Shown piece after piece: positions 25,946 through 61,902 of a stretch of DNA of 64,000 bases. The notes under the pieces were generated by a model. That model saw nothing but the letters and a program-made list of their open reading frames with translations, was not told the DNA's origin and did no database searches. The stretch lies in assembly GCA_964291315.2 (NCBI GenBank), contig OZ219750.1:64001-128000 (forward strand). The letters run 5' to 3'. This stretch comes from Candidatus Poribacteria bacterium. GTDB taxonomy: Bacteria; Poribacteria; WGA-4E; WGA-3G. A program made the position numbers and the translations under genes. Every line of letters starts with the position of its first letter. The stretch's first letter is position 1.

Positions 25946-26761
25946 CTATGGAGTCTGTTTAAGGTATCCCCAGTGCGTCGTGAGTTTGCTGCCGGGTTCG
26001 ACGCTGAGAATGGCAGCCAGACCGGTGTCCATAGCCTCCTGGATTTCGGCCTCGGTTCGTGCGGTATTCGAGATGCGTATCTCTTCAATAATGCCTTTCA
26101 AACCGTTTGGGTTATCGAGATTTGGCACGCCGATTGTGATAGGATCTTGGCTCTGAAAGGTTTGGTCATTGGGTGCCTCGGTTTCCAGTTCTCCATCAAC
26201 ATAGACGCGTCCGATCTTACCGTCATAAGTGAAAGCGAGATGATGCCACTTGTTGTCGGTGATCTCGGTTGTACCAGCGATAGAGAATCCGCATGCTGCA
26301 TTGGCTCCGATTTCTGCATGCATCACGCTTGTATCAAGATGGACCCAGATGCCGTAGTTACGGTTGGTGCAGCCTGCCTGCTGTTTGCAAATTATTCCTT
26401 GCCATTTGCCTGTTGCTTCTTCAATCTTTACCCACGTTTCAATGCTGATCTCTTCTATCTCCAATTTTTTGGTAGAGTCCACGACGATGTAGCCGTCGGT
26501 GTCGCCGGGGAACTCTAGGCCCGTCCCAAATTTTCCTTTAACCCACTTAGGATTTCCTGCAAATTCGCCATCATGGCCGTTGCCGGAGGCATCTTTCACC
26601 ACCTTTCCGGCTCCTTCTTCGAAAAGCCAGACGGCCACAGTGTGTTTATCAACTGCTGCCTCTGTGTGTATACCGGTGTGAATAAGGGTGACAACCGTAA
26701 TCGCAATTAAGAGATGCAAGAGGTTATAGAAAGATTTTGTATCGGTGATATAGAGCGTCAT
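25946..26761 (-). CDS. Secreted LamG-like jellyroll protein with the short C-terminal W-[GA]-x-[LI]-K motif
   Basis: AVWLFEEGAG..KDASGNGHDG, GKFGTGLEF, WHHLAFTYDG, GIIEEIRI; ends LSVEPGSKLTTHWGYLKQTP. Confidence 0.85.
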   Translation of the reverse strand: MTLYITDTKSFYNLLHLLIAITVVTLIHTGIHTEAAVDKHTVAVWLFEEGAGKVVKDASGNGHDGEFAGNPKWVKGKFGTGLEFPGDTDGYIVVDSTKKLEIEEISIETWVKIEEATGKWQGIICKQQAGCTNRNYGIWVHLDTSVMHAEIGANAACGFSIAGTTEITDNKWHHLAFTYDGKIGRVYVDGELETEAPNDQTFQSQDPITIGVPNLDNPNGLKGIIEEIRISNTARTEAEIQEAMDTGLAAILSVEPGSKLTTHWGYLKQTP

Positions 26762-26921
26762 TTTATCCAGTTTCCCCTCCTCTATTTTCTGCTCTATTCT
26801 ATCAGAAAACGATTTTTAAAGTCAAATGTTTTGGCAGAATTATCGGTCTGTAGCGTGGTAGGTGTCTTCTACTGTGCTTTGGGGTGGATCGAGTCAAACG
26901 AGAGGATCGAGGGCAGTTGTG

Positions 26922-27488
26922 CTATATCTGTTTGCGTTTGTTAAATTGGTTCATGGCTGTTAGGATGTCGGTTGTGACAAAGGTTTCGATAGCGTCGACG
27001 GCTCGATGGATAGTCGATTGGATTTCTATTGCCTCGGTTTCCGAAAATTCTGTGAGGACGTAATCTGTCAAATCACCAATGGGTTCACCAATACCGATGC
27101 GTAGGCGTGGGAACTGGTTTGTTCCTAAGTGATGGATGATAGACTTCATCCCTTTCTGGCCGCCGTGGCTGCCCTTCTGGCGTATCCGGAGTCGCCCAAT
27201 CTCTAGATGAATATCATCGTAGATAACACAGAGTTGTGAGAGAGGCACCCCAAATTGCTCGACGAGGGCGGCAACGGCGATACCACTCTTGTTCATATAG
27301 GTCATCGGTTTTGCGAGAATAATTGGTGTGTCGCGCCATGTTGTTTGCAAAACGATCGATTTACAAAGCGATGCTTGTCGATTAGATTGCATCTCTCCAT
27401 GGAGTGCATCGATGACGCGAAAACCGACGTTGTGTTTGGTGTGCTGGTAGCGCAGCCCGGGATTACCGAGCCCGACGATGAGTTTCAT
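26922..27488 (-). CDS. pth: Peptidyl-tRNA hydrolase
   Basis: MKLIVGLGNPG, HNVGF, KPMTYMNKSG, RLRIGIG. Confidence 0.95.
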   Translation of the reverse strand: MKLIVGLGNPGLRYQHTKHNVGFRVIDALHGEMQSNRQASLCKSIVLQTTWRDTPIILAKPMTYMNKSGIAVAALVEQFGVPLSQLCVIYDDIHLEIGRLRIRQKGSHGGQKGMKSIIHHLGTNQFPRLRIGIGEPIGDLTDYVLTEFSETEAIEIQSTIHRAVDAIETFVTTDILTAMNQFNKRKQI

Positions 27489-27535
27489 TTTTATGTGTGG
27501 CTGTTTGCGAGTTGATAACCGATTTGTCGCAAACC

Positions 27536-28171
27536 TCAATCGAAAATATGTAGTGGACGTGAAAGGTTAAGATGCCCCGCAAGGGTCTTGACTTGGTTGC
27601 CATCAATTAGAATTTGAACTTCCTTAATGTCGTTTGGGAATGCATCGAAGACGGTCTTAAGGATCGCCATAACGGTTAACTTCTCGGCGGTGGTGCCCCC
27701 GATATGCCCGTCAGCGAGCTGTCTTGAGAAATCCAAGTAGGCGGTCTGGTGGCTGTCAATGTAGGCTTCGTTGAGGCGTGTGCTGCGTGGAATAGGGTTT
27801 CTGAAATTAGGAGGTGTTTCTTGTATTAGCGCCTTGATCACTTGGTTCAGGCGTTCGGTGGTTTCGACGACAAGCCGTCTTTCGACTTTAACGGGAACAA
27901 GCGTGCTTGCAGTTGGGGGGATAAGGAACAGATTGAGTTGCTGAGGGGGTGGCATCGTGTTCGAAGGATTCGCAGCGACAGGTAACGGAGGTGGTGCAAC
28001 CGAGATTGCGGTCTGTTTCGATTGTTCAATCAGATATAGTGTCAAGGCGAGACAGACAAAGACAACAAAAAAGGTTATTCCCCAAATGACGAAGATTCTC
28101 GAAAAGCCGGCATTGCTGTTATATTTCACTGCTTTGTCCGTGTTATAGCTTATCGGTTTGTCGTAGCTCAA
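27536..28171 (-). CDS. GerMN domain membrane-anchored protein
   Basis: Single N-terminal transmembrane segment; AYLDFS, GGTTAE, VQILIDG...TLAGHL. Confidence 0.8.
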   Translation of the reverse strand: MSYDKPISYNTDKAVKYNSNAGFSRIFVIWGITFFVVFVCLALTLYLIEQSKQTAISVAPPPLPVAANPSNTMPPPQQLNLFLIPPTASTLVPVKVERRLVVETTERLNQVIKALIQETPPNFRNPIPRSTRLNEAYIDSHQTAYLDFSRQLADGHIGGTTAEKLTVMAILKTVFDAFPNDIKEVQILIDGNQVKTLAGHLNLSRPLHIFD

Positions 28172-28179
28172 TAGGTATT

Positions 28180-29400
28180 TTATTGTTCTGATCTTGTTGG
28201 TGGAACGGATTGGTTCACAGAGGAAACGTAATGCTGAATAGCGCGGGTGATGGCTTGCGCGATGCTAGCCGTGTAGTCAGCATTAGAGAGTTTCCTTAAA
28301 TCCTCGGCATTAGAAAGATAACCGATTTCCAGAACGACAGCGGGTGTAAAGATATCAGATAAAGTAGTCAGGGGTAGTTCGGTAATCGGGATAGGTGTCT
28401 CTGTTAGGAAATTGAGTTCTGTCTGCAAGACAGCTGCGAAGTCGCGGCTCTGTTTTAAAAAATTGGCTTGGGCGAGGAATTTCAATCTTTGTCCTGGAGG
28501 TGCCTGCCCGCTGCCCCTCCGGAATCGGAGGTGTCCTTTAGGGTTATTGAGGTAAATCTTGATACCTTTTTCATGGGATGAAAAAGAGGTGTTGCAGTGT
28601 AGACTGAGAAAGAGTCTGCCTTGGTTTCGATTCGCAACTTGAATCCGTTCGAAGTGTGTTTTTTGGGTGTCTGTCTGCCGTGTGAGGTAAACCTGCATTT
28701 CTTGTTGTTTACTGAGCTGTTGTATCCGTTTTGCGAGTGCGAGGACGATGTCTTTTTCGAGGATCCCGGTGTTGCCTTCACATCCGCTGTCATCTGGGCC
28801 GCCGTGTCCGGGGTCGATAATGATTGCCCAATTCTGGGCGCGGACTGCTACCGTGGGGTCCGAATTTTCTTTAGGTCTCATCTGGATCCTACGGAGGCTT
28901 GGATTGTAGATGACTTCCACATTATTGAAAAGTGGCAAGAGTTGGGTGAAGAAAGCGATAGGTAACATCGGCTGCTGTCGAATGATTATCGGAGCCGTTG
29001 AGAGGGTAATTTTGTTGCCCCCTGGGTCGATGTTAATTGTTGGATTGTCCATTTGTACGCGAATCCGCTTGTCTCTGATGGTGAGAGTCAGTCGTTTTCG
29101 CGGGTGGTTATACTGATGCGTCATTGCCGGATCAAGTACGTGTTTCACGGCATCAATGGAAAGGTAGACTTCCCCATCGTTGAGTCGGATAGGCACTTCT
29201 GCAACGGTCTTCCCATCAGCATCAATAAAATGAGCGTAGGGTTCTTGGGCAATACTGTTGAGTGCAAGAGTCCAAGCGAGAAGGCCGAAGAAAAGTGAGT
29301 AAACAGTCGGGCTGGACGCTATATGGAGCAAAGGTCTCCTATTCACGGGTACTGCTTGTCGCTTCTGTGTATGGGCGGTGTTATGTTTACCCTTCGTCAT
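28180..29400 (-). CDS. N-acetylmuramoyl-L-alanine amidase (Amidase_3) with an N-terminal copper-amine-oxidase-N-like domain
   Basis: IIDPGHGG, LEKDI, LSLHCN, VLEIGY; start probably near 29400 rather than the TTG deep inside rplY. Confidence 0.85.
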   Translation of the reverse strand: MTKGKHNTAHTQKRQAVPVNRRPLLHIASSPTVYSLFFGLLAWTLALNSIAQEPYAHFIDADGKTVAEVPIRLNDGEVYLSIDAVKHVLDPAMTHQYNHPRKRLTLTIRDKRIRVQMDNPTINIDPGGNKITLSTAPIIIRQQPMLPIAFFTQLLPLFNNVEVIYNPSLRRIQMRPKENSDPTVAVRAQNWAIIIDPGHGGPDDSGCEGNTGILEKDIVLALAKRIQQLSKQQEMQVYLTRQTDTQKTHFERIQVANRNQGRLFLSLHCNTSFSSHEKGIKIYLNNPKGHLRFRRGSGQAPPGQRLKFLAQANFLKQSRDFAAVLQTELNFLTETPIPITELPLTTLSDIFTPAVVLEIGYLSNAEDLRKLSNADYTASIAQAITRAIQHYVSSVNQSVPPTRSEQ

Positions 29401-30061
29401 TGTCCTGCCTACGGGAAATAACTTCTGGTTCCGTGGGCTCTTCAGTCGTTTCTTCGCCTTCTCCCTCACCCGCTTCACCTTCTGCTTCTTCAGTTTCAAG
29501 TTGGATACGAGGTTGGCTCACTGTGGCAATAGTCCGTTGGAAATCGTCTATAATCTCAACGTCAGGACCGAGGTTTAAATCAGCGACCTGAACAACCTCG
29601 CCTATTTCCAATTCCCTGACATCGATAGAGATCTCAGTGGGAAGTTGCATAGGCAGGCAATGAAGAGTCACTTGTCGGAGCAATAATTCGAGTACGCCTC
29701 CATCTTGGACACCAGCGGGGCTGCCTACCAGAACCACGGGTACAGACGAAGTCACAGGTTCATCCAGTGAAATTCTGATAAAATCGGCATGAACGAGTTC
29801 TTGTTTGTCTACCGGGTCACGTTGGATTTCTTTGATAATGACCGTTTCGGTGTTACTTCCCTCGATTTCCATATTGATGATAACATTTTCGCCGTATGTG
29901 CGTAGGAATTGTTTAAAGGTTCGCGTGCTGAGTCGGATCGGCAATGTCTCTTGTGTGCGTCCGTAGAGGATTGCTGGAAATTCGCCTTCACGTCGAAGGG
30001 CTCGTGAGCTGCTCTTTCCGAAAGTGTTGCGTAGTTGCCCCTCTAATTTTGCTTGTTGCAT
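29387..30061 (-). CDS. rplY: 50S ribosomal protein L25/CTC
   Basis: GKSSSRALRREG..PAILYG, IQRDPV, HADF, GVQDGG, acidic tail. Confidence 0.95.
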   Translation of the reverse strand: MQQAKLEGQLRNTFGKSSSRALRREGEFPAILYGRTQETLPIRLSTRTFKQFLRTYGENVIINMEIEGSNTETVIIKEIQRDPVDKQELVHADFIRISLDEPVTSSVPVVLVGSPAGVQDGGVLELLLRQVTLHCLPMQLPTEISIDVRELEIGEVVQVADLNLGPDVEIIDDFQRTIATVSQPRIQLETEEAEGEAGEGEGEETTEEPTEPEVISRRQDNDEG

Positions 30062-30079
30062 TTTTCTTTTCCATTCAGT

Positions 30080-30199
30080 GGTTATCAGTTATCGGTTAAG
30101 AGATTTCTCTGTGAGAATTCACTACTTTCTGATGTGCTACGTATGTTGGCAGTAATTACTAGTTATTGCAAAAGCGGTTTTGATCTGATAGCCGACAGT
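30080..30199. repeat. Heptamer-based inverted element
   Basis: GTTATCA-GTTATCG at the left end and CTGATAG-CCGACAG at the right end; similar segments at 23184-23298 and 24500-24613. Confidence 0.45.
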
Positions 30200-30213
30200 T
30201 TTAAAAAAGGAGG

Positions 30214-30285
30214 CAGGGCGGGTAGGATTCGAACCTACGCATGCAGGTTCCAAAGACCTGTGCCTTACCGCTTGGCCACCGCCCT
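30214..30285 (-). tRNA. tRNA-Gln (anticodon UUG); CCA not encoded
   Basis: Cloverleaf: acceptor AGGGCGG/CCGCCCT, D arm GCC..GGC, anticodon arm CAGGT-CTTTGGA-ACCTG, T arm GTAGG-TTCGAAT-CCTAC; G73 followed by CCT; usual position after ispE. Confidence 0.95.
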
Positions 30286-30293
30286 TTACGTTA

Positions 30294-31172: not shown

Positions 31173-31183
31173 GATTCTATATG

Positions 31184-33313: not shown

Positions 33314-33469
33314 TTAATTTTCTCCTTTTCGGTTTACGATTATAGATAAGTAGTCAGCAAGCGACCTATAGATCGGTTACAGACGCTAATTGTTTGTATG
33401 CCACATCCTGAAGTTTACGGTTGCTGAGAGAGCCGATAGTTTCGGGTAGCCGTTCTGCTACTTTTTAGA

Positions 33470-34603: not shown

Positions 34604-34642
34604 TTTTTTTGTACCTCACATTTATCTAACGCAAAGGATACG

Positions 34643-35449: not shown

Positions 35450-35483
35450 AGTTTTTCCTCTGTTGGTTTAAAGGCGTTGGGTT

Positions 35484-36647: not shown

Positions 36648-36677
36648 GATGTCTCCTAATCTCGGAAACCTATGGAT

Positions 36678-36734
36678 GCACAATCTAACAGATTATGCTA
36701 CAAGAGCTATTGCACGACCTAACGGGTTATGCTA
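36678..36734 (-). repeat. Two tandem GTAG-type REP-like units
   Basis: gcacaatctaacagattatgctacaag and gcacgacctaacgggttatgcta. Confidence 0.65.
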
Positions 36735-36859
36735 ATAAGGTTGCCGTGCGTAAGTTTTAATCTTAATATATTTAGACTCCGTTGTCAAGTTTTTTCTCGG
36801 ATGGATAGTGCAAGCCGTATCTATAAACATTTCCGCATGTAGGATCGATTGCTCGTCTC

Positions 36860-37237: not shown

Positions 37238-37287
37238 GAAAGCAGCTCTAGATGTGTGCTGGTGCAGCACTTAAAAAAATTCGCCTT

Positions 37288-37311
37288 GCACAACCTAACG
37301 GGTGGTGCTAC
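37288..37311 (-). repeat. GTAG-type REP-like unit whose TAG is the stop codon of the DUF1156 gene
   Basis: gcacaacctaacgggtggtgctac; cta at 37308-37310. Confidence 0.6.
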
Positions 37312-40368: not shown

Positions 40369-40383
40369 AAAGGTACAGCGTAT

Positions 40384-47869: not shown

Positions 47870-47926
47870 CTATGGTCCCTCCGTGGATGTTTCTGCGTGG
47901 TTAAAAAGTGAAGTGCGAAATACAGC

Positions 47927-49453: not shown

Positions 49454-49510
49454 GCAACGCGAGTTATCAAGTTAATGGTCGTCTGGCTCGCTACAAGCGG
49501 AGAGAAACGA

Positions 49511-52500
49511 GTGCCAAAGATTAAAAATAAAGAGTTATCGGTTGTCAGCCATAGGCTGTCAGCAGCCCGTCAGATGCCGGTTGTTAAGAACCAGCTGTCG
49601 AGGGTTATTTTTCGAGTTTATGTCTGTCTTGCGGTTCTGATGCTGCCTGCTAATGTCTGGGCAGGTATCACGAGTTTATCACTTGACGCGAACGGTGATA
49701 AGGTTTTCAAGGGTGGGCAGGAGCAGTTAAATATTGTTTTTACGGTTGATCAAAATACTGCCGAGGGTGGAGATACCTATACAGTTACGGCGAATCAACA
49801 TTTGATTAGGCGTGGTACTGTAGCTGCGAACGGGTCAGTGCGTATCCGCTGGAACGGGCGTATTAACAACACGCGGCTCCCGGACGGGAGTTATACCATT
49901 AAGGTTACCCTCAGCAAAGAAGGTGGCACTGGGGAGATATTGGAAAGATCTGAGACGGCTATTTTAGATACAGAACCGCCGCGCATCTCTAGTATATTTG
50001 CTAATGAGAATTCTAGTTTGTTGCTTAGCGATGGTGGCTTTATTAATGTGCCGCTTCGTTCCATAACTGTAGTTCCTGAGGCAGATGTGGGGAGTCCGAT
50101 TGATTTCGCTGCTGCCCGGACGAATGTTGTTTTGAAGAATGATCGTGGTGTTGTGCGCGGTGGTACCCTCAATTACACGACACAACTGAACTTGAATTTG
50201 GGAAATCCTTTAGATATCCGTTCGGAAAATGGGCGTTATACGGTGACCGTCACCGTGGTAGATGAAGCGGGTAACTTCGTTGAAGACACAACGGAATTTA
50301 TTTTCGATAATGTGGCCCCGAGTTTAACGTCTGTGGCTGGCAGCAGTGGTGCAATATCTCCGGGTGCGAGTCTTAACGGGCGTTTGGATTTTGTTGAGGC
50401 GGTGCTTTCGGACAATTTAGAGAACGGTGTGAATCTTTCTAGTTCGACGATCCGTCTGACAGGGCCAGCGGGCGAAGTTTTTGGGAGTCAGACGTTTCTG
50501 GGAAGCGATAAGATTCGGTGGGTATTTCTATCGCCTTTATTAGCGAGAGATGGTCTTCATGATGGTGAGTATACCGTTGAAGTGATTGGAACGGATAAGG
50601 CGGGTAATCAGAGTAGTGCTGTCCGGGTTCCTTTTGTTTATGATAACCTTGTGCCAGAGCTCCTCACTTTAGGTCCGAGCCAAGATGAGGCTTTCAACCG
50701 GATAGGGGATACGATTTACCACAATCAACCGCTTACCCAGATTGTTGCCACCTTTAGCGATGGCGATTCTGGGGTTGGTATCGATTTTGAGAAGAATACT
50801 TGGATTCGGTTTAGCGCTGTTGGAGATGGGAATACGCGTCGGGTGCTTGCGGGCCGGAGCTTTGTAGATAAAAATAACGCGCGAGTTACGCATGTTTTGG
50901 AAGAGCCCTTGGTGAGTCAAGATGGCCGTTATAGGCTTGATGTGCAATTCGCTGATACATTGGGTAATATGGATAACGAAACGTTCCACTTTCTTTATGA
51001 CACTCAACTCCCGACCGTTGTGTCTACCTTTCCTGCAGCCAATCAGACCGTTGCTAATTTATCGCGGGTACAAGTGGTTCTGAATGAAGTGACGAGCGGT
51101 ATTGATTTCACTCAGAGTGTTTTCCGGTTGACGCGGTCTGTGGGGGGCAGCCAAACAGAGGTTTCTGTTAATATCACGAACAATGGAATGGACACTGCGA
51201 CTTTAACGGTGTTAGAGCCTATTGCTCTGGATGGTTCAGACAACGGTACGTATGCGATAGAAGTTACCCCGACTGATCGTGCTGGTAACATTGGTGCGTC
51301 TGCTCGGCGTGAGTTCTATCTCGTCAGTCAGAGCCAAGTTGAGGTGCGATTAACAACGCCTGAAGTCACGACTGTCAGTACTTTGGATAGCGTTGTGGTG
51401 GAGCTTGTGGGTTATATCGGTCCAGGTGTTAATCTTAATGGTTCAACGCTTACAGTCACAAATCCGCGGGGTGTTGTGGTTCCGGCGAGACGGGTTGAGA
51501 CGGATGCGGCGAATAACCTCTTAACGTGGAGTACGGATGCGGTAATTCCGCGCGATGGCACGGCAGATGGTGAATACACTATCGCTGCGACGTTCGTTGA
51601 TTTTGGTGGGAGGCGTTTTGTCCGCGAATTTCAGGTCGTTTTAGACACACAGTTTCCAGCGGTCGCGAGTGTCGAAGTTGCGACTGACCCGGAACGAGTA
51701 CTTTCGAGGGATAGGACTACAGATATCACTGTAGGCTTCTCGCAAATCACAGTGACTTTTGAAGAAGCTTTTCGCACAAATGATATTGACTTTTCGAATA
51801 CAAATGTTACGCTTACCGATCCGGATGGCGAGAGCATTCTTATCAACCGTTTCGATAACGGACGGACTGTTTTAACGTTGAATTTTCGGACTTTGACGCA
51901 GCCGGGTGAATATGTGCTTTCAATTGTGCCGATGGACTTAACAGGCAACCAAAGCACAGCTCCATTTGTCTACCGGTTTCGGATTGAAATTGCGCTGCCT
52001 ATTGTGAGTTCGGTTCTGATTGATGACAAGGCGGGTACGATTGTTTATGTCAACGGTGAGTCTACTGAAATCGTGGTTACTTTCGTGGATACGACGGGCG
52101 TTGGTTTAGATTTAGGTGCTGGCGGTTCAACGATCACTGTGACTAACGAGAGTAATCTTCCTGCTCCGGGGTTCACTACGTCGAGTGAAGAGAATCAATT
52201 GACGTGGGTTCCGATAGTGCTTCCGACTGATGGAAGTGCGGATGGACGTTACACGGTCACTGTTACGCCGAAAGATAAGGATGGTAGGCAAGGCGAGACC
52301 GTATATCGCCAGTTTATTTACGACACACAGGAACCGCGTGTAACTGCTGCGGTTCCGGTTGACTTGTCGCAATTTGTCTCGTATATCGGTGACAGACTGA
52401 CGCGGCTGCAGATATCTGTTGAAGATGTGGGTCCCGCGGGTTTGGTATTAGAAGAACAAAAAGTTACTATCCTTGATGCTGAGGGTGTGCCTGTGGCAGG

Positions 52501-55500
52501 AACGCTCACAACCGATAAGATAAACGAGCAGCTCTATTTCACTTTTGCGTCTCCTTTCCCACGGGATGGGAGCAAGGATGGGGAGTATCTGGTAGCGTTT
52601 TCTCTGATTGATAAATCGGGAAATCAGCTTGATGCCGAGCATAGATTCGTTTATGATTCACAAGTGCCGAAGTTAACGGGTGTCACGTTAAATACAGCTA
52701 TGCCGACTGAACTTCACCCGAACGAGGTTCCCGAGATTTTGGAGCCTATCAGTGGTATCGTGTTTAAATTTGAAGATACGACGCTTGTTGATTTTGCTAA
52801 TACCGTGATTCAGTTGGTTGGTCCTGATGAATCGGAGATTCTGCTTAACTTAGAAGACGATGGGACTTCTGAGGTAGTTGCGGATTTCTTAACGTTGACT
52901 CAGATTGGTTCGTATACCCTGTCTGTGACTCCTCAGGATATTGCGGGGAATGCGGCGTCGGGTGCGATACGTTACGAGTTTGTTTTGGATATATCGCCTC
53001 CCCGCGTCGGCGGTGTGGTTATCGGTGATCAAGAAGAGGGCGTTGCGTATGTAAATGCGAGCAACATGGTTATTGTTGCGCGTCTGCTTGATCCAACAGA
53101 AACCGGATTAGATTTTGGGAGTCAGCGTTCAACCATCCAAGTGCAAACGGCTGAGGGAACAGTGGTTCCGGGGCTTACCAGCAGTAATAGCGTGGATTTG
53201 ATTGGCTGGGAGCCGGCGGCATTCACATCTGACGGAAGCACGGATGGAAAATACAGCGTATATGTTGTGCCTGTTGACAAGGTTGGAAGGCAGGGGACTA
53301 CCGTCTATCGTGAGTTTGTCTACGATACGCAAGAACCACAGATAACTTCTGCGGAGCCTGTTGACTTAAGTCAGCCGGTTTCATATATCAGCGACAATCT
53401 GATGCAGTTTCACTTGAGCATAGAGGATGTTGGGCCTGCGGATCTGGAATTGTCGGATCAGAAAGTGAGCTTGCTTGATGCGGGTGGGACTTCGGTCCCG
53501 GCGCAATTGACTCACGATAGCAGCGGTGAGATATATCTTACGCTTGATGAACCGTTATCTCGCAATGGCAGTATGGACGGTGAGTATACTCTTCGTGTTG
53601 CGTTAGTGGATAAATCTGGGAACACTTTCAGTATTGAACATACTGTTGTTTATGATACACAAGCTCCGACGTTAGTGAGTACTGTGCCTGCTGATGGTGC
53701 TTTGGTTACTGCGGATCGGACGCAGGTGCTTGTAACGCTCAAAGATACTGGAGGTAGCGGTATAGATTGGAATGGAACTACGGTGACCTTAGTTGATCCG
53801 AATGGTTCGGAATTATCGGGTGAACTTGTCAGTGATTCGGTGGGGCAGTTAACGTTGAATACGAACCAGCTCATTGCGGATGGGAGATACATCATTCGTG
53901 TAAGAGCGGTTGATCGTGCTGGGAACGGAAGTGCGACTGTCTTTGAACGTAGTTTTTTACTTTCGAGACGTTTGCCTGTTCTGGTTTCGACTTCCCCGAA
54001 GACGGCCCCTGCAAATGAGGCGTTTAGCAATGCGGAGGTTGATCAGATAGAGGTGCTCATTGAGACAGATGATGAAAATCATCTCTCGACACTGCGACTC
54101 TTGAATGGTTCAGATCAACTGGTTGCCGGGCAGCAGCTGCGCGAATCTGATCGGTTGGTTTATGATCTTGTTCGTCCGCTTGCAGCGGATGGTTCGGATG
54201 ACGGTGTGTATACGATTGAGTTTACACCTATCAGTGCTTCTGGGCGCACGGGAGATGTTCAAAAACGCACCTTTACACACGATACAGAAGTGCCTGAAGT
54301 TGAGCCTGAAGCGATTAGTCTCGTTGTTGCCTCTGCTGATTCTAATAATTCGTTGACAGAGATTCATGTTAGTCCTACAGATGAAGAGTCGGGGATTGAT
54401 TGGGAAAACGTTGATTCGGAGTGGCTGACTCTTGAGCGTGTTTTGCCGAACCCGACTCAAATTGCGGGGCGTGTTGAGGATGACAACCAAGGCGTGCTTC
54501 GTTTTGTATTGACTGTACCTCTTGCGGATAATGGTTCGGCTGATGGTGAATACAAGATTGTTGTTACGCCTAAAGATCTAGCGGGAAACGGTGGTGTGTC
54601 TTATGAACAGGTTTTTACCTACGATACGAAACCGCCGATGATTGACGTGGGAACTCTGCTTCTCAATGATGCTGCCCTCCTTGTTGACATTGATGCGGTG
54701 GCGTATCCGACAGCGGTTTCTACGACGGGTGGGGTGATGATACAAGCGAATATGTTTGATACGGGCTTGGGTGTTAACCTTGCGCAGTCGAGTATCGTCA
54801 TCAGGGGTCCGGATGGTAGTGCGGTTTCGGGCAGTACACAGCAAAACGGTGTTGATACGATTGTCTTCAAATCTGACGGTTTGTCAATGCGAGGGCTTTA
54901 TCAAGTCGAGGTTGTAGGTGTGGGCAATGACTCCGAGTTGTTGGGGTTTGCGCCGTCAGATTCGATTACGACAGAATTTCTGTATGAAACGACTGTGCCG
55001 ACTGCTGCTGTAACAGCTGATGGGGGTGAGACCGAACTCACGGATAAGGCGCTTCCGTTGGAGGGGACAGCTTCGGATCCAAGCGGCACACAAAAGGTGG
55101 GTGAAACGGACATAATAGTGCCTGCATCGGGGGTATGGCTTGTTGAGATAGTAGGGACTGGTCCCGATAAGCAGCCCATTGATCCGGTACCTGCTGTTGA
55201 TGATAGTAGTGCGGAACAGGAACCGTGGAGTTTCTGGTCTCTTGACTTTCTCCCGACCCGTTCGGGTGAATACGACTTGGATGTTCGCGTCACTGATAAT
55301 GCTGGCAACACCGAGGTTTACGACATTGGAAAGTATACGATGTCGGTATCGCTCACGTTCCGGGATCCCACGTTTGGGTGGCCAAATCCGTTGAGAATTT
55401 CCAAAGGTGATGTGGCTTTCTTTTCGTTTGATGTCAATGTTCCGCGTGGAGACACTGTTAAACTTACCTTGAGTATCTATGATTGGAGTGGTGACATGGT

Positions 55501-55681
55501 TCTTTTGCAGACGTATCCGGATGTTGTATCGGGGCAGCGAAATGACCAGTTGGTGAAATGGAATTTAGAGAACCAAGCGGGTAATCGTGTTGCGCGCGGT
55601 CTCTATGTCTTCCGTTTAGAGGCGGTTAATGCGGCGGGGAATAGCGCGAACGCTGTTGGCAAAGTGCTTGTTGTTGACTAA
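49511..55681 (+). CDS. Giant secreted Ig-like repeat protein with a T9SS-like/FlgD-Ig C-terminal domain
   Basis: Signal peptide ending NVWA; about 16 ~110-aa units, each with GxY...D..GN...[FY]D[TN]..P; C-terminal WPNP...IYDWSG...WNLEN..G..VARGLY...KVLVVD; GTG start behind GGAGAG. Confidence 0.85.
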   Translation: MPKIKNKELSVVSHRLSAARQMPVVKNQLSRVIFRVYVCLAVLMLPANVWAGITSLSLDANGDKVFKGGQEQLNIVFTVDQNTAEGGDTYTVTANQHLIRRGTVAANGSVRIRWNGRINNTRLPDGSYTIKVTLSKEGGTGEILERSETAILDTEPPRISSIFANENSSLLLSDGGFINVPLRSITVVPEADVGSPIDFAAARTNVVLKNDRGVVRGGTLNYTTQLNLNLGNPLDIRSENGRYTVTVTVVDEAGNFVEDTTEFIFDNVAPSLTSVAGSSGAISPGASLNGRLDFVEAVLSDNLENGVNLSSSTIRLTGPAGEVFGSQTFLGSDKIRWVFLSPLLARDGLHDGEYTVEVIGTDKAGNQSSAVRVPFVYDNLVPELLTLGPSQDEAFNRIGDTIYHNQPLTQIVATFSDGDSGVGIDFEKNTWIRFSAVGDGNTRRVLAGRSFVDKNNARVTHVLEEPLVSQDGRYRLDVQFADTLGNMDNETFHFLYDTQLPTVVSTFPAANQTVANLSRVQVVLNEVTSGIDFTQSVFRLTRSVGGSQTEVSVNITNNGMDTATLTVLEPIALDGSDNGTYAIEVTPTDRAGNIGASARREFYLVSQSQVEVRLTTPEVTTVSTLDSVVVELVGYIGPGVNLNGSTLTVTNPRGVVVPARRVETDAANNLLTWSTDAVIPRDGTADGEYTIAATFVDFGGRRFVREFQVVLDTQFPAVASVEVATDPERVLSRDRTTDITVGFSQITVTFEEAFRTNDIDFSNTNVTLTDPDGESILINRFDNGRTVLTLNFRTLTQPGEYVLSIVPMDLTGNQSTAPFVYRFRIEIALPIVSSVLIDDKAGTIVYVNGESTEIVVTFVDTTGVGLDLGAGGSTITVTNESNLPAPGFTTSSEENQLTWVPIVLPTDGSADGRYTVTVTPKDKDGRQGETVYRQFIYDTQEPRVTAAVPVDLSQFVSYIGDRLTRLQISVEDVGPAGLVLEEQKVTILDAEGVPVAGTLTTDKINEQLYFTFASPFPRDGSKDGEYLVAFSLIDKSGNQLDAEHRFVYDSQVPKLTGVTLNTAMPTELHPNEVPEILEPISGIVFKFEDTTLVDFANTVIQLVGPDESEILLNLEDDGTSEVVADFLTLTQIGSYTLSVTPQDIAGNAASGAIRYEFVLDISPPRVGGVVIGDQEEGVAYVNASNMVIVARLLDPTETGLDFGSQRSTIQVQTAEGTVVPGLTSSNSVDLIGWEPAAFTSDGSTDGKYSVYVVPVDKVGRQGTTVYREFVYDTQEPQITSAEPVDLSQPVSYISDNLMQFHLSIEDVGPADLELSDQKVSLLDAGGTSVPAQLTHDSSGEIYLTLDEPLSRNGSMDGEYTLRVALVDKSGNTFSIEHTVVYDTQAPTLVSTVPADGALVTADRTQVLVTLKDTGGSGIDWNGTTVTLVDPNGSELSGELVSDSVGQLTLNTNQLIADGRYIIRVRAVDRAGNGSATVFERSFLLSRRLPVLVSTSPKTAPANEAFSNAEVDQIEVLIETDDENHLSTLRLLNGSDQLVAGQQLRESDRLVYDLVRPLAADGSDDGVYTIEFTPISASGRTGDVQKRTFTHDTEVPEVEPEAISLVVASADSNNSLTEIHVSPTDEESGIDWENVDSEWLTLERVLPNPTQIAGRVEDDNQGVLRFVLTVPLADNGSADGEYKIVVTPKDLAGNGGVSYEQVFTYDTKPPMIDVGTLLLNDAALLVDIDAVAYPTAVSTTGGVMIQANMFDTGLGVNLAQSSIVIRGPDGSAVSGSTQQNGVDTIVFKSDGLSMRGLYQVEVVGVGNDSELLGFAPSDSITTEFLYETTVPTAAVTADGGETELTDKALPLEGTASDPSGTQKVGETDIIVPASGVWLVEIVGTGPDKQPIDPVPAVDDSSAEQEPWSFWSLDFLPTRSGEYDLDVRVTDNAGNTEVYDIGKYTMSVSLTFRDPTFGWPNPLRISKGDVAFFSFDVNVPRGDTVKLTLSIYDWSGDMVLLQTYPDVVSGQRNDQLVKWNLENQAGNRVARGLYVFRLEAVNAAGNSANAVGKVLVVD

Positions 55682-55766
55682 GGAACGGCTTTTGGTGGAT
55701 AGCAGGTCGCGAGATGGACAGCGAACCGCGAATAGCCAATGTCAGAATCAGTAAGGAGAATGTATA

Positions 55767-56735
55767 ATGCAGAGAAGGGGAGCCGTTCTCATTTTAATGG
55801 TGTTTCTCATAACAGCTGCAGCTGCGTTGTGTGTCGATGCGGTTGATATCCACGATGGTGCGGGGACTGCAGGTGCTGCTTTCCTGAAAATTGAAGGTGG
55901 GAGTCGTCCTGTGGGGATGGGCGGTGCATTTGCGGGACTTGCCGATGATGTAAATACTATTTTTTGGAATCCTGCGGGTCTAACTGCGGTTGACGATCAG
56001 GAATTAACTGCGATGCAACACTTTTCGTTTGCGGATATTAATAATCAGTCTATCGGTTATGCGCAACGGTTGGATCGGTTTGTGTGGGGTGCAAGTTTCC
56101 TCGGCAGTTTCACAGAAATTGAGCGTCGCCAAGGTCCAACGGAGGATCCGGATAGTACTGTAACTGTCGGTGGGTTTGCAACAGGTTTATCTCTCGCTTA
56201 TCGGATCGGTTCAGCTGTATCTATTGGTGGTACGGCAAAGGTGATTTCAGAGCAACTGGATATTCAGAATGTCTACGGTGCTGCCGCGGATGTGGGTTTG
56301 ATCTTACGTTTGCTTGACGATCACCTCGGTATTGGTTTAGCTGTCCAAAACGCAGGCATCTTAGACGGTGAGGAGAGCTTACCGATGGCTCTCCGCGCGG
56401 GTCTGGCCTATAGAGCTTGGGAGGCGGCGGAGGGATCGATGCTGTCTGAGCGTGAAGTATGGGCGTTTGTGGTGGATGCGCATGTTCCGCTGATCGATAC
56501 ACATCCGAGTTTTCACATTGGTGCAGAACGTTGGTTCTACGAGAGTGTGGCGGCGCGTATCGGCTACCGCCTCGGTTCGAATGAAAATCCGAGTGACGGG
56601 TTGTCACTCGGTGTGGGTGTCCGGCGCAGCGGTGAGGACGTGTTCGAAAATATTGATTTCCAGTTTGACTACGCCTTTGTGCCGGATGCTTATGTGGGTA
56701 ATGCGCATCGTGTCTCTTTTATCACGCGGTTTTAG
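55767..56735 (+). CDS. PorV/PorQ-family (UPF0164-like) outer membrane beta-barrel
   Basis: AFLKIEGGSRPVGMGGAF...IFWNPAGL, D.GL, LP..LRAG, RIGY, FDYAF...G..HRVS, terminal Phe. Confidence 0.82.
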   Translation: MQRRGAVLILMVFLITAAAALCVDAVDIHDGAGTAGAAFLKIEGGSRPVGMGGAFAGLADDVNTIFWNPAGLTAVDDQELTAMQHFSFADINNQSIGYAQRLDRFVWGASFLGSFTEIERRQGPTEDPDSTVTVGGFATGLSLAYRIGSAVSIGGTAKVISEQLDIQNVYGAAADVGLILRLLDDHLGIGLAVQNAGILDGEESLPMALRAGLAYRAWEAAEGSMLSEREVWAFVVDAHVPLIDTHPSFHIGAERWFYESVAARIGYRLGSNENPSDGLSLGVGVRRSGEDVFENIDFQFDYAFVPDAYVGNAHRVSFITRF

Positions 56736-56742
56736 CGGGTAG

Positions 56743-57855
56743 CTAACTGCTTGCTTCAAGCATACGTTCAATTGGTGCGCGGGCTTTGTCGATGATCTCG
56801 GGACTGAGCGTAACCTCATATTCGCTGAGATCATTGCCTTGGTCGATGGCTTCGAGGATATTTTTAATCTTTCCGAGACTCACCTTTGCCATGTGTGAGC
56901 ATCGGATTGAGCATGCTGTCCAGAATTCGACTGCTGGAAATTCTTGTGCCAGATTTGAAGTGAGTTCACACTCCGAGGCGACGAAAGCGCGTTCCAGCTG
57001 CTTGGTTGCGACGCGCTCCGCGATGTCCTTCATAATCTGACTGGTGCTGCCGTAAAAATCTGCTTCTTGTAGGACATTTGGGCGGCATTCCCAGTGTGCG
57101 TATAGTTTCCGGTTCGGGTGTCCTTTTGGAATATCAAATGACTCACGCACGTTGAGAAGGTCTGTGAGAGTAAATTTCTCATGGACTTCACAGACAGCCC
57201 CGCGGGCGGTATTGTTTTTGCCGGGGTAGACGACGTTTTTCTCACCTTTCAACTCTTCCTCTAAGTTTTGTGCAAAGAAGATATCTGGTACAAAGATGAT
57301 TGTATCCCCTGGCAGCGTTTTTGCGATATGTGCTGCGTTTGCGGATGTACAGCAGATATCGGATTCTGCTTTTGCGTCGGCGTAGCTATTGACATAGATC
57401 ATCACTGGTGCTCCGGGGTAGAGGTTTTTCAACTTTCTGACCTCTTGTGCGCCGAAGTTATCGGCGAGGGAGCATCCTGCTGTTTTATCTGCGACTAATA
57501 CCGTCTTGTCAGGACTTAAGATTTTTGCGGTCTCTGCCATAAACGGTACCCCGTTGAATATTAAATAGGGCGTTTCTGCTTTCGCGGCATACATGCTCAG
57601 GCCGAGTGAGTCGCCTTGTTCCTCTTTTTCTGATAAGCCGAAAACGAGCGGTTCCATATAGTTGTGGCCGAGCATGACAACGTCATGCTTCAGCTTGAGG
57701 GTTCGTATTCTGTGGATTGTCTTGGCGTGTGCCTCTATATCGAGGAACGTTAAGCTTGGATGGTGTCGCTTGTATAATTCTTGTTTAACGTCCTCGATAG
57801 TGAGGTCGGTTGTACAATTAGGAGGAGGTTCTCCGTTAGAATGCATAACAGTCAT
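56743..57855 (-). CDS. nadA: Quinolinate synthase
   Basis: GHNYM, GDSLGLS, FMAETAKILSP, AGCSL, YVNS, TSAN, CEVH, HWEC, CSHM. Confidence 0.93.
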   Translation of the reverse strand: MTVMHSNGEPPPNCTTDLTIEDVKQELYKRHHPSLTFLDIEAHAKTIHRIRTLKLKHDVVMLGHNYMEPLVFGLSEKEEQGDSLGLSMYAAKAETPYLIFNGVPFMAETAKILSPDKTVLVADKTAGCSLADNFGAQEVRKLKNLYPGAPVMIYVNSYADAKAESDICCTSANAAHIAKTLPGDTIIFVPDIFFAQNLEEELKGEKNVVYPGKNNTARGAVCEVHEKFTLTDLLNVRESFDIPKGHPNRKLYAHWECRPNVLQEADFYGSTSQIMKDIAERVATKQLERAFVASECELTSNLAQEFPAVEFWTACSIRCSHMAKVSLGKIKNILEAIDQGNDLSEYEVTLSPEIIDKARAPIERMLEASS

Positions 57856-57935
57856 TTTGGCACGCTCCAGGTCATTTTTTATGGTTCCTATTAAGATACC
57901 CGAAAGCTGTCGTTTTTGTCAAGGTTAAGACACAA

Positions 57936-58487
57936 ATGAAAAATTTAAGTCAAATTTTCTGTGTTGAAAGAAAAAAGAGGTGTGTTTTCACACTTGCTCT
58001 ATGTCTCATGTGGGCGTTTGCTCCGGGAGTAGAGGCTATTTCGGTCAAATTGAGAGGGAAAATTGTGTTGGGTGCGGTTCTTTCAGGTTTGGCGTATGGC
58101 ACCCACGCTCTTATTAAACGCGACAGGCGGGCAGCGGAGCAGCTACAATTCCGGCTTGGCCCACCTGAGCGCGTTGTTGAATTTGAACGGGGATTCGATG
58201 TGTGGCGTATCGCCTACTATAGGAACGAGTGTTATCTGTTTCGGAACCACCGGTTCGTCGCGTCTGTGCCTTGTGCTGACGTGCGATCGGGAGGTGGAGA
58301 GAACACTCGTAGGAGTAGGCGGTGGTGTGCATGCAAGTTCACGTCGCCGTTTCTTATTGATACGCCCGTTTTAGCGTTCCCCAGGTGGTCGCGGCTTTGC
58401 CTTTTGCATTTACGGCGAGTCCCTCGATTTGTATTTTCCGGTCGTTATCGTTGGGGAGCCGGACGTTTGCTTGTGCGGGGTCGGTAG
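57936..58487 (+). CDS. Hypothetical exported/membrane protein; 3' end overlaps the convergent gene
   Basis: Signal-like N-terminus and LGPPERV segment; fills an otherwise empty ~400-nt gap. Confidence 0.45.
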   Translation: MKNLSQIFCVERKKRCVFTLALCLMWAFAPGVEAISVKLRGKIVLGAVLSGLAYGTHALIKRDRRAAEQLQFRLGPPERVVEFERGFDVWRIAYYRNECYLFRNHRFVASVPCADVRSGGGENTRRSRRWCACKFTSPFLIDTPVLAFPRWSRLCLLHLRRVPRFVFSGRYRWGAGRLLVRGR

Positions 58488-59028
58488 ATTTGAGATCTGT
58501 TGTCACGAAGATAGCGTCTATCATAGTGGCATCTTCGCGCACTCCGATCCGTAGGAAGGTTTCGCCGGCTGTGTCGAACTCCCATTCTCGGTCGAATGTG
58601 CCGCCGTCTAACCAGTGGTTGATGCGGTCCCAGTGCCAGTCGGCGCCTTGAGCGACGCCCCATCGGAATTCAGTGTTCTGGGTCTGTTGTGCGTCTTCGT
58701 CTGGGTCGGCGGGTTGCCATGTGACCCAGAAGGAGTCGCTGTTGCCGTCCCAGGCGGTGACGTGTCCCCAGAGGGCGTATTCCCCGGGTTCGGGGATGTT
58801 AATGACAAAATCGGCGTGTCCTGAGCCGCCGCCGCCAGTAGCAGCGGCTCCTTCCATCCAGATGAATTTTCCGTCAGAAGCGTTTTTATCCTCTCCGATA
58901 ATCATGGGTTCTACAATTTCTTGTGCGAGCTCTGCCTCGAGTGCGATTTCGACTTCGGCATTCAGCCTTGCGGTTCCATATAGGGTTGCTGTTAAGATCG
59001 TTAGGACCAAAATTATACTATATTTCAT
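58354..59028 (-). CDS. Secreted galactose-binding/CBM-like jellyroll protein with the C-terminal motif (paralog A)
   Basis: Signal peptide; LEAE, ASDGKFI, GEYALW, NSDSFWV, REDAT.ID; ends AVNAKGKAATTWGTLKRAYQ. Confidence 0.78.
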   Translation of the reverse strand: MKYSIILVLTILTATLYGTARLNAEVEIALEAELAQEIVEPMIIGEDKNASDGKFIWMEGAAATGGGGSGHADFVINIPEPGEYALWGHVTAWDGNSDSFWVTWQPADPDEDAQQTQNTEFRWGVAQGADWHWDRINHWLDGGTFDREWEFDTAGETFLRIGVREDATMIDAIFVTTDLKSTDPAQANVRLPNDNDRKIQIEGLAVNAKGKAATTWGTLKRAYQ

Positions 59029-59191
59029 GGTAGCTTTCCTTTCTGGTATAGGTATCAGTGATCATGTATCAGGGCATCGTGTGTAGCGCGACCTAATAAC
59101 GTGAGGCAGAACCTGCTCGGTTTTGCGAGGCTCTCTTTATCCAAAGATGAACCCAGTAATTATTCAAGCTCGCGTTCCTAGCGAGAGAGGT

Positions 59192-59215
59192 TCGGGGCGT
59201 CGTCGAACGCCCCGA
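59192..59215. terminator. GC-rich 9-bp hairpin between the paralogs
   Basis: TCGGGGCGT-CGTCGA-ACGCCCCGA, no U-tract. Confidence 0.4.
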
Positions 59216-59233
59216 TGCCTGATAGTGGGTTAA

Positions 59234-59884
59234 TTATCTACGGGCTTTGAGGTTTGCCCATGTTGTAGCGAGTTTATCCTGTGGTTCTACAGGGACTAAG
59301 GAGTCTGCTGGGATTGGGTCGCGTGGTCCTACTTCCGCTTCGTCCTCGGAGAGATTGTCGGTGATGAAGATGACATCTAGCATCGCGGCATCTTCGCGGA
59401 CGGCAATACGGAGTGTAGTTTCGCCTGCCTCCAATTCCCATTCTCGTTCGAATGTGCCGCCGTCTAACCAGTGGTTGATGCGGTCCCAGTGCCAGTCGCT
59501 GCTTTGGGCGACGCCCCATCGGAATTCAGTGTTTTGGGTCTCTTGAGCATCTTCGTCTGGATCAGCAGGTTGCCATGTGACCCAAAACGAATCACTGTTG
59601 CCATCGGCAGCAATGACTTTTCCCCAGAGAGCATAGGTGCCGGCTTGTGGGATAGGCAGGATATATTCTGCCCAGCCTTCGCCCCCGCCGCCGGTGGCTG
59701 GGGGGCCCTCCATCCATATAAATTGTCCGCCGGAGGCATCTGCGTTGTCGGCGATGACCATGGGAGCTTCGATGGCATCCGCTATTTCAGCCTCAATTGC
59801 CCGTTCATAGCTGTAGCTGGTGCTGCTTGTGATCAGTAGGCTGCACATGCAGAGGATGGCTAATACGAAAGTTGTGAAACGCAT
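59234..59884 (-). CDS. Secreted galactose-binding/CBM-like jellyroll protein with the C-terminal motif (paralog B)
   Basis: Highly similar to 58354-59028; ends VPVEPQDKLATTWANLKARR. Confidence 0.78.
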   Translation of the reverse strand: MRFTTFVLAILCMCSLLITSSTSYSYERAIEAEIADAIEAPMVIADNADASGGQFIWMEGPPATGGGGEGWAEYILPIPQAGTYALWGKVIAADGNSDSFWVTWQPADPDEDAQETQNTEFRWGVAQSSDWHWDRINHWLDGGTFEREWELEAGETTLRIAVREDAAMLDVIFITDNLSEDEAEVGPRDPIPADSLVPVEPQDKLATTWANLKARR

Positions 59885-59938
59885 AAAAGTATCTCCTTTT
59901 CTAGTGATGTACCAGTTGCACTGGTCGTTAGATATAAG

Positions 59939-60898
59939 TTATGGGGATCGGATGTTGCCCCATTGCTGAATCTGTAGCGTTAGTGTGTCTATGGGCAGCA
60001 CCTCTGGCGCTGGATGCCACTTCGGTTGTGCTGCCCAAGCCTCGTTGTTAATCAATTCACGGCGCCTGTCGCCATCGACATGTATGAGATGTATCACCCA
60101 TCTACCGTCTTGCTCAAATTGAAAAGCGATGGTGTTTCCATCGGGTGCCCATGCCGGAACGGCCTCATCTGTTGCCGTGTCGGTAAGTGCTTTTTTGTTC
60201 CCGCCGTCTGCTGCGTCCATGGTGTATAAATCAAAATCGGCAAACGCACCTTTTTGATTCATGGACGCATATACAATCTGTGTACCGTCCGGTGACCACG
60301 CTGGATAGGTATCCATCAACGGCTGATCTGTCAAGCGTTGTTCAACCCGGTTTCGGACATCGACGATATATATATCCCAATTGAGTTCCCGTTTTGAGTG
60401 GAATGCGATGGTGTTTCCGTCGGGTGCCCATGTGGGTGCCTCATCTTGAAACGGGTTGTCTGTAACGTGAGTTATCTCGTTGGTGTCGAGATGAAGCAGG
60501 TAGATGTTGAAATGCCCGTTGCGGTTTGATGTAAAAGCGAGTCGTTTCTCGTTGGGTGCCCATGCTGGTGCTTTGTCCGTTGCGGGATGCTGTGTGAGTC
60601 GTTGTTGCTCGCTGCCATCGGCTTGCATCAGATAAATTTCGTGATTCCCGTCTCGTCTTGAGAAAAACGCCATCTGCGTACCGTCAGGTGCCCAGGCGGG
60701 GTAGTAATCGGCTGCGGGATTCCGCGTCAGATTGACCGGGGGTTTCCCAAGGCTATCTGTCAGATAGATTTCCCAGTTACCGTTCACGTCTGAGGCGAAC
60801 GCGATTTTCGCTAGTGGCTGAAGTTGGCACCAAGCGCTCTGGATTAAAAGCACAAACATCCAGAAAAAACCATAGTGACATACTAACAGGATGCGCAT
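59939..60898 (-). CDS. Secreted TolB-like PD40 beta-propeller protein
   Basis: Repeated P[AT]W[AS]PDG..[IM]AF.S.R.G...IY; ends LPIDTLTLQIQQWGNIRSP. Confidence 0.85.
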   Translation of the reverse strand: MRILLVCHYGFFWMFVLLIQSAWCQLQPLAKIAFASDVNGNWEIYLTDSLGKPPVNLTRNPAADYYPAWAPDGTQMAFFSRRDGNHEIYLMQADGSEQQRLTQHPATDKAPAWAPNEKRLAFTSNRNGHFNIYLLHLDTNEITHVTDNPFQDEAPTWAPDGNTIAFHSKRELNWDIYIVDVRNRVEQRLTDQPLMDTYPAWSPDGTQIVYASMNQKGAFADFDLYTMDAADGGNKKALTDTATDEAVPAWAPDGNTIAFQFEQDGRWVIHLIHVDGDRRRELINNEAWAAQPKWHPAPEVLPIDTLTLQIQQWGNIRSP

Positions 60899-60926
60899 TT
60901 TTTCTCTATACTTTTTTTCTCCTATT

Positions 60927-61029
60927 GCAGAGACTAACGGTCTATGCTACAAGCACACTACAGATGCTGTTGCACAGGAAACCAACAGAATATACTACAA
61001 GACACAGACTAACAGTCTATGCTACAAGG
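60927..61029 (-). repeat. Cluster of three GTAG-type REP-like units (A-B-A)
   Basis: gcagagactaacggtctatgctacaag, gcacaggaaaccaacagaatatactacaag, acacagactaacagtctatgctacaag. Confidence 0.8.
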
Positions 61030-61055
61030 CAGTTGACAAGCTATCGTTCGAGGGG

Positions 61056-61086
61056 GTGCTGGCGACATTTTAAACCTCGCCAGCAC
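61056..61086. terminator. 10-bp inverted repeat downstream of the LamG gene
   Basis: GTGCTGGCGA-11nt-TCGCCAGCAC. Confidence 0.4.
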
Positions 61087-61116
61087 TAATAGCTCTCTTT
61101 TTTGCAATAAGCCGGG

Positions 61117-61902
61117 TTATCTGTTTGACTTAATGTTCGCCCAAGACGTGGTAAGTTTGCCTTGCGGTTCTACGGGGGTCAGAAATGATGCAGCGTCTTG
61201 GTTCATACTGGCTTTTATTTCGTCAGCCGAGAGGGCTCGGTTCCAAAGTCTTGCTTCGTCGACACTGCCTGTCCAAGCTTCACCGCCCCAGGTGCCGATT
61301 GTCACAGCGCTTGTATTTTCAGCAGGAGCGACCGGGTTGCCGGATTCTTCAGAGTGGGTTACCTCGCCGTTCACGTAAATCTCTACTAAGCCGTTGCTAT
61401 CATCTGTGTGGGTATAAGCGAGATAATACCATTTACCGGTTTCCAATTCTGTTGCGTTGTCGTTGATGTCTTTGAATCCGCCGGTTGCGCCGTTGGTCCA
61501 GACTTTAATGCCGTTTGCAGGATTTGTCCCGAATCCGAACCCGATGTGTCGAGTTGCCCCGCTCTGCCGGGTTCCGAAAATAACGGCGTGTGCATTGGGC
61601 AGTTCGTCCAGCTGGACCCATGCTGCTTGTGTAATCGCGCCTTCAATATGGAAGGCGGGATCGTCTTGAATAAGGACGTGGTCTGCGGCAGCTCCGAATT
61701 GGAGGGCTTTGCCGAATTGTCCATCGATCCATTTCGCGTCGCCCATCACTTCACCTTCAAAGCCGTTCTCGGATAAATCTTGCGTTGTGCTCCCGGAACC
61801 TTCGTCGAGAGGCATATATAGAACAAGCCCTTCCATTAAATCGGCGTGAGAGAACGCTGGAGCCAAAAATAGACAGAGCGTGATTATTAAAAAGAGTTTC
61901 AT
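61117..61902 (-). CDS. Secreted LamG-like jellyroll protein with the C-terminal motif
   Basis: GLVLYMPLDEGSG, GQFGKALQF, WYYLAYT, GSVDEARLWNRALS; ends TPVEPQGKLTTSWANIKSNR. Confidence 0.87.
   Translation of the reverse strand: MKLFLIITLCLFLAPAFSHADLMEGLVLYMPLDEGSGSTTQDLSENGFEGEVMGDAKWIDGQFGKALQFGAAADHVLIQDDPAFHIEGAITQAAWVQLDELPNAHAVIFGTRQSGATRHIGFGFGTNPANGIKVWTNGATGGFKDINDNATELETGKWYYLAYTHTDDSNGLVEIYVNGEVTHSEESGNPVAPAENTSAVTIGTWGGEAWTGSVDEARLWNRALSADEIKASMNQDAASFLTPVEPQGKLTTSWANIKSNR

Follow-up and report, generated by a model that had tools for sequence, protein, structure and literature searches.

Five genes on the minus strand of the window, the 64,000-nucleotide stretch analysed here (positions 64001–128000 of contig C1, OZ219750.1, in a 4.4-Mb, 95%-complete Candidatus Poribacteria assembly), encode proteins that combine a signal-peptide-like N-terminus, a domain and a C-terminal tail of about 17 residues, referred to below as the tag. 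Positions in the tag are counted from its tryptophan. Two of the proteins carry a Laminin_G_3 domain: one of 271 amino acids (aa) at 25946..26761, with tag and stop codon at 25946..26008 (26.1 bits against a hidden Markov model, HMM, built from the tails of this genome), and one of 261 aa at 61117..61902 (tag and stop 61117..61179, 30.1 bits). Two CBM-like proteins follow the same plan, with 224 aa at 58354..59028 (tag and stop 58354..58419, 25.0 bits, A replacing L at −4) and 216 aa at 59234..59884 (tag and stop 59234..59296, 32.2 bits). These four tags are canonical. The tag of the fifth protein, a 319-aa PD40 propeller at 59939..60898 (tag and stop 59939..59998), is divergent: the I...W-G-x-I-R spacing is retained, while K(−5) and L(−4) are lost. 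A Pfam scan recovered LamG in the 25946 and 61117 proteins and PD40 in 59939, and gave no match for the 58354 and 59234 proteins; proximity of the 59234 domain to GH115_C/CBM6-like clusters in the Atlas is a lead only.

The initial annotation had described these five open reading frames (ORFs) with their tails, a W 10 residues after V or I, and a stop shortly afterwards. All of this was confirmed: the five genes lie on the minus strand, each has an N-terminal hydrophobic segment, the spacing holds in all five tails, and the stop follows 2–4 residues past the final K/R. That the five share one tail stood for the four canonical copies. The PD40 tail, without K(−5) and L(−4), was missed by the genome-built HMM and is thus a divergent member by pattern only. 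Among the window's non-overlapping ORFs of 150 aa or longer, 39 in all, exactly these five showed the terminal pattern. No match to the type A C-terminal domain (CTD) of type IX cargo was present in any of the five.

Occurrence and conservation of the tag

A six-frame scan of this genome (21,782 ORFs) with the pattern V/I-x9-W-[GAS]-x-[LIVM]-K placed 103 matches at the end of an ORF and 3 inside one. Among 3,030 non-overlapping ORFs, the hit rate of the pattern was 98 in 33,330 at terminal positions and 1 in 1,175,903 at internal ones, so that the tail is far from common internally, and shuffled C-termini returned a mean of 0.18 matches with a maximum of 1 (50 shuffles). A chance origin of the terminal tail is excluded. 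At a threshold of at least 12 bits the HMM found 108 terminal matches and a single non-terminal one, which lies within an 83-aa remnant. A signal-peptide-like N-terminus, called by a hydrophobicity heuristic and not by SignalP, was present in 102 of the 108 tagged ORFs compared with 934 of 2,928 background ORFs; the remaining six look like fragments, frameshifts or a miscalled start. Only one of the 108 showed a lipobox-like pattern. Tagged proteins had a median length of 268 aa, compared with 796 aa for the 34 CTD proteins of this genome, and were about three times more numerous (108 versus 34).

The 108 tagged ORFs fell into 31 BLAST sequence clusters. Pfam matches at E ≤ 1e-4 were obtained for 13 of 29 scanned proteins (CBM9, CBM4/9, NPCBM, DUF1080, PD40, LTD, LamG, and weak peptidase or GH43 matches), and the other 16 had none at this threshold. 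With 31 clusters and unrelated Pfam families, the tail proved to be domain-independent, as had been proposed.

The tail consensus was x-[APS]-V-[ED]-[PA]-x-x-K-L-[TA]-T-T-W-[GAS]-x-[LIV]-K, followed by 1–9 free residues. In a logo of 82 non-redundant tails from this genome, for which the 27-member lamin-tail (LTD) family was entered once, conservation reached 94% for V(−10), 88% for K(−5), 84% for L(−4), 100% for W and 96% for K(+4), and the logo from a distant genome was the same. The near-invariant V followed an A or S in 50% of the tags of this genome and in 79% of those of the distant one. Residues at the extreme C-terminus, after the final K, were not conserved. Across 120 homologues of one tagged family, V, K, W and K were 99% conserved. 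In the 82 genes, synonymous codon choice at conserved tag positions varied mostly as in the genome at large, and no base exceeded 43% in any of 40 columns 3' of the stop. The constraint thus acts on the peptide, and conservation of the tail is at the protein level. A DNA or RNA repeat lying over gene ends and mimicking a peptide, an explanation that the nearly identical tails of the 27-member LTD family might favor, was rejected on these two grounds and has a negligible probability.

The best 19-residue Kyte–Doolittle mean within the last 40 aa was 1.36, with an average of 0.35 over 85 distinct tails, in agreement with the earlier claim that the tail contains no transmembrane helix. The description of the tail as amphipathic failed, since its helical moment (0.32) barely differed from that of shuffled sequences (0.29). 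The tag end is basic, with a mean net charge of +2.8. In an AlphaFold model of the 61117 protein, pLDDT was mostly 85–96 for the LamG domain and 43–55 for the low-confidence tail, in which a six-residue helix (W-A-N-I-K-S) begins at the tryptophan. As modelled, the tail is not part of the LamG domain fold, which argues against a tail integral to each domain.

The tail profile matched 151 of 151 Poribacteria genomes and 22 of 22 genera, with 33–363 candidates per genome as first-look figures that are not copy numbers. At relatives' loci the tail was terminal in 110 of 110 cases and, in a second set, in 42 of 42; relatives of the 61117 protein came from 57 loci named Poribacteria and 3 named "uncultured bacterium" among 60, which places the organism in that phylum. 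A search of 1.84 billion representatives returned 681 matches at E ≤ 0.001. Among the best 150 of these, 137 were terminal, 5 were followed by 21–59 more residues, 8 were repeat artefacts, and none was a protein with tag arrays. In the DUF1080 tag family, 119 of the 120 listed homologues (of 152) were tagged, with no swap among them.

Searches of catalogues with 47 tails gave no matches in NCBIfam, including its CTERM models, and only chance matches in Pfam, none of them relevant; in these two collections the tail is uncatalogued and does not belong to a characterised family. The best hit of a PDB sequence search with the tail profile had an E value of 0.33, and an Atlas search with the tail alone as query gave no usable match. 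Literature searches, in a collection with few subscription papers, listed no title or abstract opening that describes the tag. The tag is real, phylum-wide and apparently undescribed. It marks about 100 proteins here and is found throughout the sampled genomes of a phylum known mainly from sponge microbiomes, where it outlines the probable envelope or surface proteome of uncultured bacteria, consisting mostly of small lectin-like proteins.

Alternation and fusion with the type A CTD

The type A CTD (TIGR04183 / PF18962; FlgD_ig-like in Poribacteria) resembles the tag in being C-terminal, domain-independent and carried by signal-peptide proteins. It differs in being a folded beta-sandwich of about 70–90 aa, whereas the tag spans about 17 aa, is of low confidence or helical in models, and does not match the CTD model. 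The two alternate on the same domains, and in some proteins the tag precedes the CTD. Twenty homologues of tagged proteins in this genome lack a canonical tag; 8 of them terminate in a CTD, 2 bear a lipobox and 3 end in a divergent tag, which leaves 7 with no such element. The 59234 domain was also found on two CTD-ending proteins elsewhere. The tag is a terminal, domain-independent peptide on Sec-type exported proteins that in this genome alternates with type A CTDs and lipoboxes.

Fusion of the two elements was observed in other genomes. Among 86 CTD regions drawn from 11 other genomes irrespective of the tag, 7 had the motif immediately ahead of the type A CTD. A first sample of CTD regions contained no fused tag among 27, indicating that the fused form is a minority. 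In a similarity-biased set, from which cases were picked by eye, 37 of 119 proteins carried the motif before the CTD, with the pattern [AS]-V-x-P-x-G-K-x4-[WL]-G-x-[IVL]-K. V, P, K, G and K were kept, A or S preceded V in 73% of copies, and the distance from W to the CTD was 11 in 34 of 37. W was replaced by L or F in 27%, and the L-x-T-T part was lost. In a model of one fused end the motif front was disordered, W-G-x-x-K reached a pLDDT of about 75 and the CTD exceeded 90; Foldseek grouped this CTD with FlgD, PorU, PorZ and SprA-bound substrates.

These fused copies, in which the motif abuts the CTD at a fixed distance and its W-G-x-x-K part is modelled with some confidence, could suggest that the tag is no signal at all: it might be a structural part, a self-association element, or the remnant of a lost CTD spread by duplication. 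The 61 of 108 tagged ORFs that derive from two paralogue families fit such a history. This explanation is already largely refuted and was judged highly improbable, given the 31 clusters with unrelated Pfam families, the presence of the tag in every one of the 151 genomes, the low pLDDT of the tail beside a well-modelled domain, and the 99% conservation of V, K, W and K in 120 homologues.

The front of the tag, a small residue followed by V and an acidic residue, was disordered in both models (61117 and the fused end) and resembles the PorU cleavage motif of type A CTD cargo. PMC4560394 gives the PorU site of Porphyromonas gingivalis as X/(GSA)(VLI), for example D/SVEDI and N/GVEDI. PMC11969387 reports that CTDs of 43–55 aa suffice for cleavage and glycosylation in Prevotella intermedia, where the consensus site is PT/GI with a conserved hydrophobic residue at +2, and that known CTDs bind PorV via beta-strand motifs B, D and E. 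They show that type IX signals can be much reduced and still undergo cleavage and glycosylation. These short CTDs keep the three strands of the sheet together with motifs B, D and E (PMC11969387). The tag is a third as long and lacks these motifs. Taken together, swapping with the CTD, fusion to it and the PorU-site-like front point, indirectly, to a type IX pathway.

Fusion could equally mean that tag and CTD have different jobs. A docking or retention tag, which would stay on the mature protein, bind a scaffold non-covalently and replace a lipid anchor, is a possible though less favored explanation, and the main rival to a sorting signal. In fused proteins the CTD would then export and the tag anchor, and different jobs most easily explain why a tag is kept before a full CTD; the fused form is accounted for at least as well as by a sorting signal. 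Candidate scaffolds include a surface or periplasmic protein, a cohesin-like module, an S-layer, or the membrane interface, contacted via W and K. The existence of lipoprotein homologues without a tag, the basic tag end and the invariant W in a short predicted helix are in line with docking. Fused copies, however, relax W to L or F and lose L-x-T-T, as if the CTD took over part of the function; a helical moment not above that of shuffled sequences speaks against a membrane anchor; and no linked scaffold gene was found for the tag genes, which are spread over 72 separate 20-kb blocks.

The strictly near-terminal placement of the motif, with 1–9 residues past K, would also suit a recognition tag for a periplasmic enzyme or chaperone outside type IX, such as a tail-specific protease, a modifying enzyme or a factor for vesicle or compartment loading. 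A short, flexible and sequence-specific peptide may well resemble the linear substrates of such enzymes. We regard this as unlikely, as the extreme C-terminal residues are not conserved, fixed fusion and swapping with the CTD point to a secretion pathway, and no candidate enzyme was found.

A possible type IX-like pathway

The reading that we favor, at roughly even confidence, is that the tail serves as a minimal, portable sorting signal for a reduced type IX-like system of Poribacteria. Cargo would be exported by Sec and folded before the tag is read. The K-L-x-T-T-W-G-x-[LIV]-K part would be recognized by one PorV-family barrel or by a PorU-like protein, and the outer membrane would be crossed through the SprA-like pore. 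A PorU-like C25 sortase might then cut before the small residue-V-acid motif and link the cargo to a surface glycan, a step that we put forward tentatively. The tag would serve small, single-domain proteins of sugar-binding type, and the folded CTD large multidomain ones.

Components for such a pathway were detected. This genome encodes one SprA-like protein of 2,242 aa and three PorU-like C25 proteins; PorV-family matches number 15 and type A CTD matches 35. In each of 15 chosen genomes (15 of 15), both a SprA-like and a PorU-like gene were present. The CTD proteins explain this machinery equally well. The 59234 tail was co-folded with one of the 15 PorV-family matches, the best conserved (C4:1829422), which is not the 55767 barrel of the window; the scores, obtained without controls, were 0.02 and 0.01, where 0.32 is the mark, and speak neither for nor against binding.

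Several observations weigh against a type IX role. The SprA and PorU matches, here and in the 15 chosen genomes, fall under the curated cut-offs, while the PorV matches exceed theirs. A search confined to GldM and GldN found neither in this 95%-complete genome, with a silent GldN control. Machinery co-occurrence fails to single out the tag because the 34 CTD proteins would account for it as well, and none of these 34 carries the tag, the fused form being absent here. A PorV-like gene was found no more than 10 kb away for 6 of the 108 tag genes; the same held for 181 of 2,928 genes of the background and for 6 of the 34 CTD genes. Four of the window's tagged genes are indeed no further than 6 kb from the PorV-like gene, as had been pointed out, but they are on the opposite strand and beyond nadA, and such proximity is not enriched across the genome. 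The cleavage-like sequence [GSA][VI][EDN] is not regularly found ahead of Poribacteria CTDs, which it precedes in 24 of 86 cases against a 16% background, and in 1 of 34 in this genome. P stands directly before V in 21% of tags, a poor fit to a cut at that bond. Finally, none of motifs B, D and E appears in the tag logo.

The tag also bears comparison with the tripartite sorting signals, namely LPXTG/sortase, PEP-CTERM/exosortase, GlyGly-CTERM and MYXO-CTERM. These are likewise short, portable and terminal, occur many times per genome and have a basic end. Unlike the tag, in which hydropathy shows no such helix, they include a transmembrane helix, and their processing takes place at the inner membrane.

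A likely related tail on metagenome contigs

A sister tail, [ST]-W-G-x-[IV]-K-x-L-[YF]-R, was found at the C-termini of diverse exported proteins, mostly on high-GC metagenome contigs; a neighboring gene on one of these is named Latescibacteria bacterium DG_63. A pattern with the core fixed beforehand gave 120 matches, and a looser rule added 24 in the flanks. Like the Poribacteria tag, the sister tail is terminal, shares W-G-x-[ILV]-K and follows a P/V/T-rich linker. It differs in lacking K-L upstream, in a shorter spacing from the P-[TVA] motif and in its conserved L-[YF]-R end. Comparison of the two profiles gave a match probability of 86.6% over 11 columns. Cross-detection was poor: the sister profile detected the Poribacteria tag only at E 0.29–0.66 (3 matches), and the Poribacteria HMM scored sister tails at a median of 3.8 bits, with 4 of 120 reaching 8. 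Homology of the two tails is for this reason rated only as likely from their sequences; if they are kin, the tag would not be confined to Poribacteria. No relevant Pfam match was found for 47 sister tails.

We can suggest, with considerable reservation, that Poribacteria use a type IX system that is divergent or has no motor, and that relies mainly on a linear peptide of about 17 residues, with recognition and sortase sites, in place of a folded domain. The sister peptide would then play this role in other uncultured phyla. If the tag is a type IX signal, the system would need no folded CTD and perhaps no GldLM motor, and the tag would offer a very short handle for surface display. To our knowledge it would be the shortest type IX signal, should the linear-signal reading be true.

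Further observations

In the window, the PorV/PorQ-family barrel (55767..56735, plus strand), one of the genome's 15 such matches, provides context without a specific link to the tag. Immediately ahead of it lies a protein of 2,068 aa (49475-55681) with Ig repeats and a CTD-like end. Conservation across classes was seen for several of the PorV paralogues, whose genes often come after that of a very large CTD protein. The three PorU-like proteins of this genome measure 1,750–2,137 aa. An example of the alternative C-terminal signal is the cohesin-dockerin protein at 62189..63757 (plus strand), which has a type A CTD and no tag. Ahead of many Poribacteria CTDs, that of 62189-63757 among them, lie an A-A-P motif and a conserved stretch that is two-helix-like and contains a W; this pre-CTD cassette is recurrent and distinct from the tag. 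A 183-aa ORF without a confident family (57936-58487, plus strand) shares 134 bases with the 3' end of tagged gene 58354, and may be shorter than called, or spurious.

Seven proteins of 203–236 aa consist of a signal peptide, a low-complexity linker and a type A CTD (C4:559170, C4:492549, C4:2045496, C4:2227020, C3:34978, C3:223405 and C4:970351). Six of their genes directly precede related secreted genes without a CTD (one was scanned and gave FGE-sulfatase), and for one of these six the SprA-like gene follows two genes downstream. The seventh is found before an LTD-family gene that is truncated. It is possible that these small CTD proteins are export carriers acting in trans.

Within the LTD family, 27 tagged ORFs have lamin-tail domains (one scanned), for example L069:14007-16811, and 26 of the 27 are 910–1,007 aa long. 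Their tails are almost identical, the genes often form tandem pairs, and several remnants occur as well. A signal-peptide ORF and a downstream ankyrin-like ORF overlap in different frames at C4:2657775-2658964, and the ankyrin-like one ends in a variant tag; the pair is probably one frameshifted gene. A remnant at C4:811609 has the same variant tail. On L230:1-333, two sister tails stand in tandem at a single C-terminus. Viral contigs gave two pattern matches, of which that on L247 does not end an ORF and that on L248 is a real tagged ORF. The latter (L248:374-1441, an IMG/VR contig) encodes an exported-looking protein of 355 aa; PHROG gave no match for it or for its 1,643-aa neighbor, and it ends in a canonical Poribacteria-type tag.

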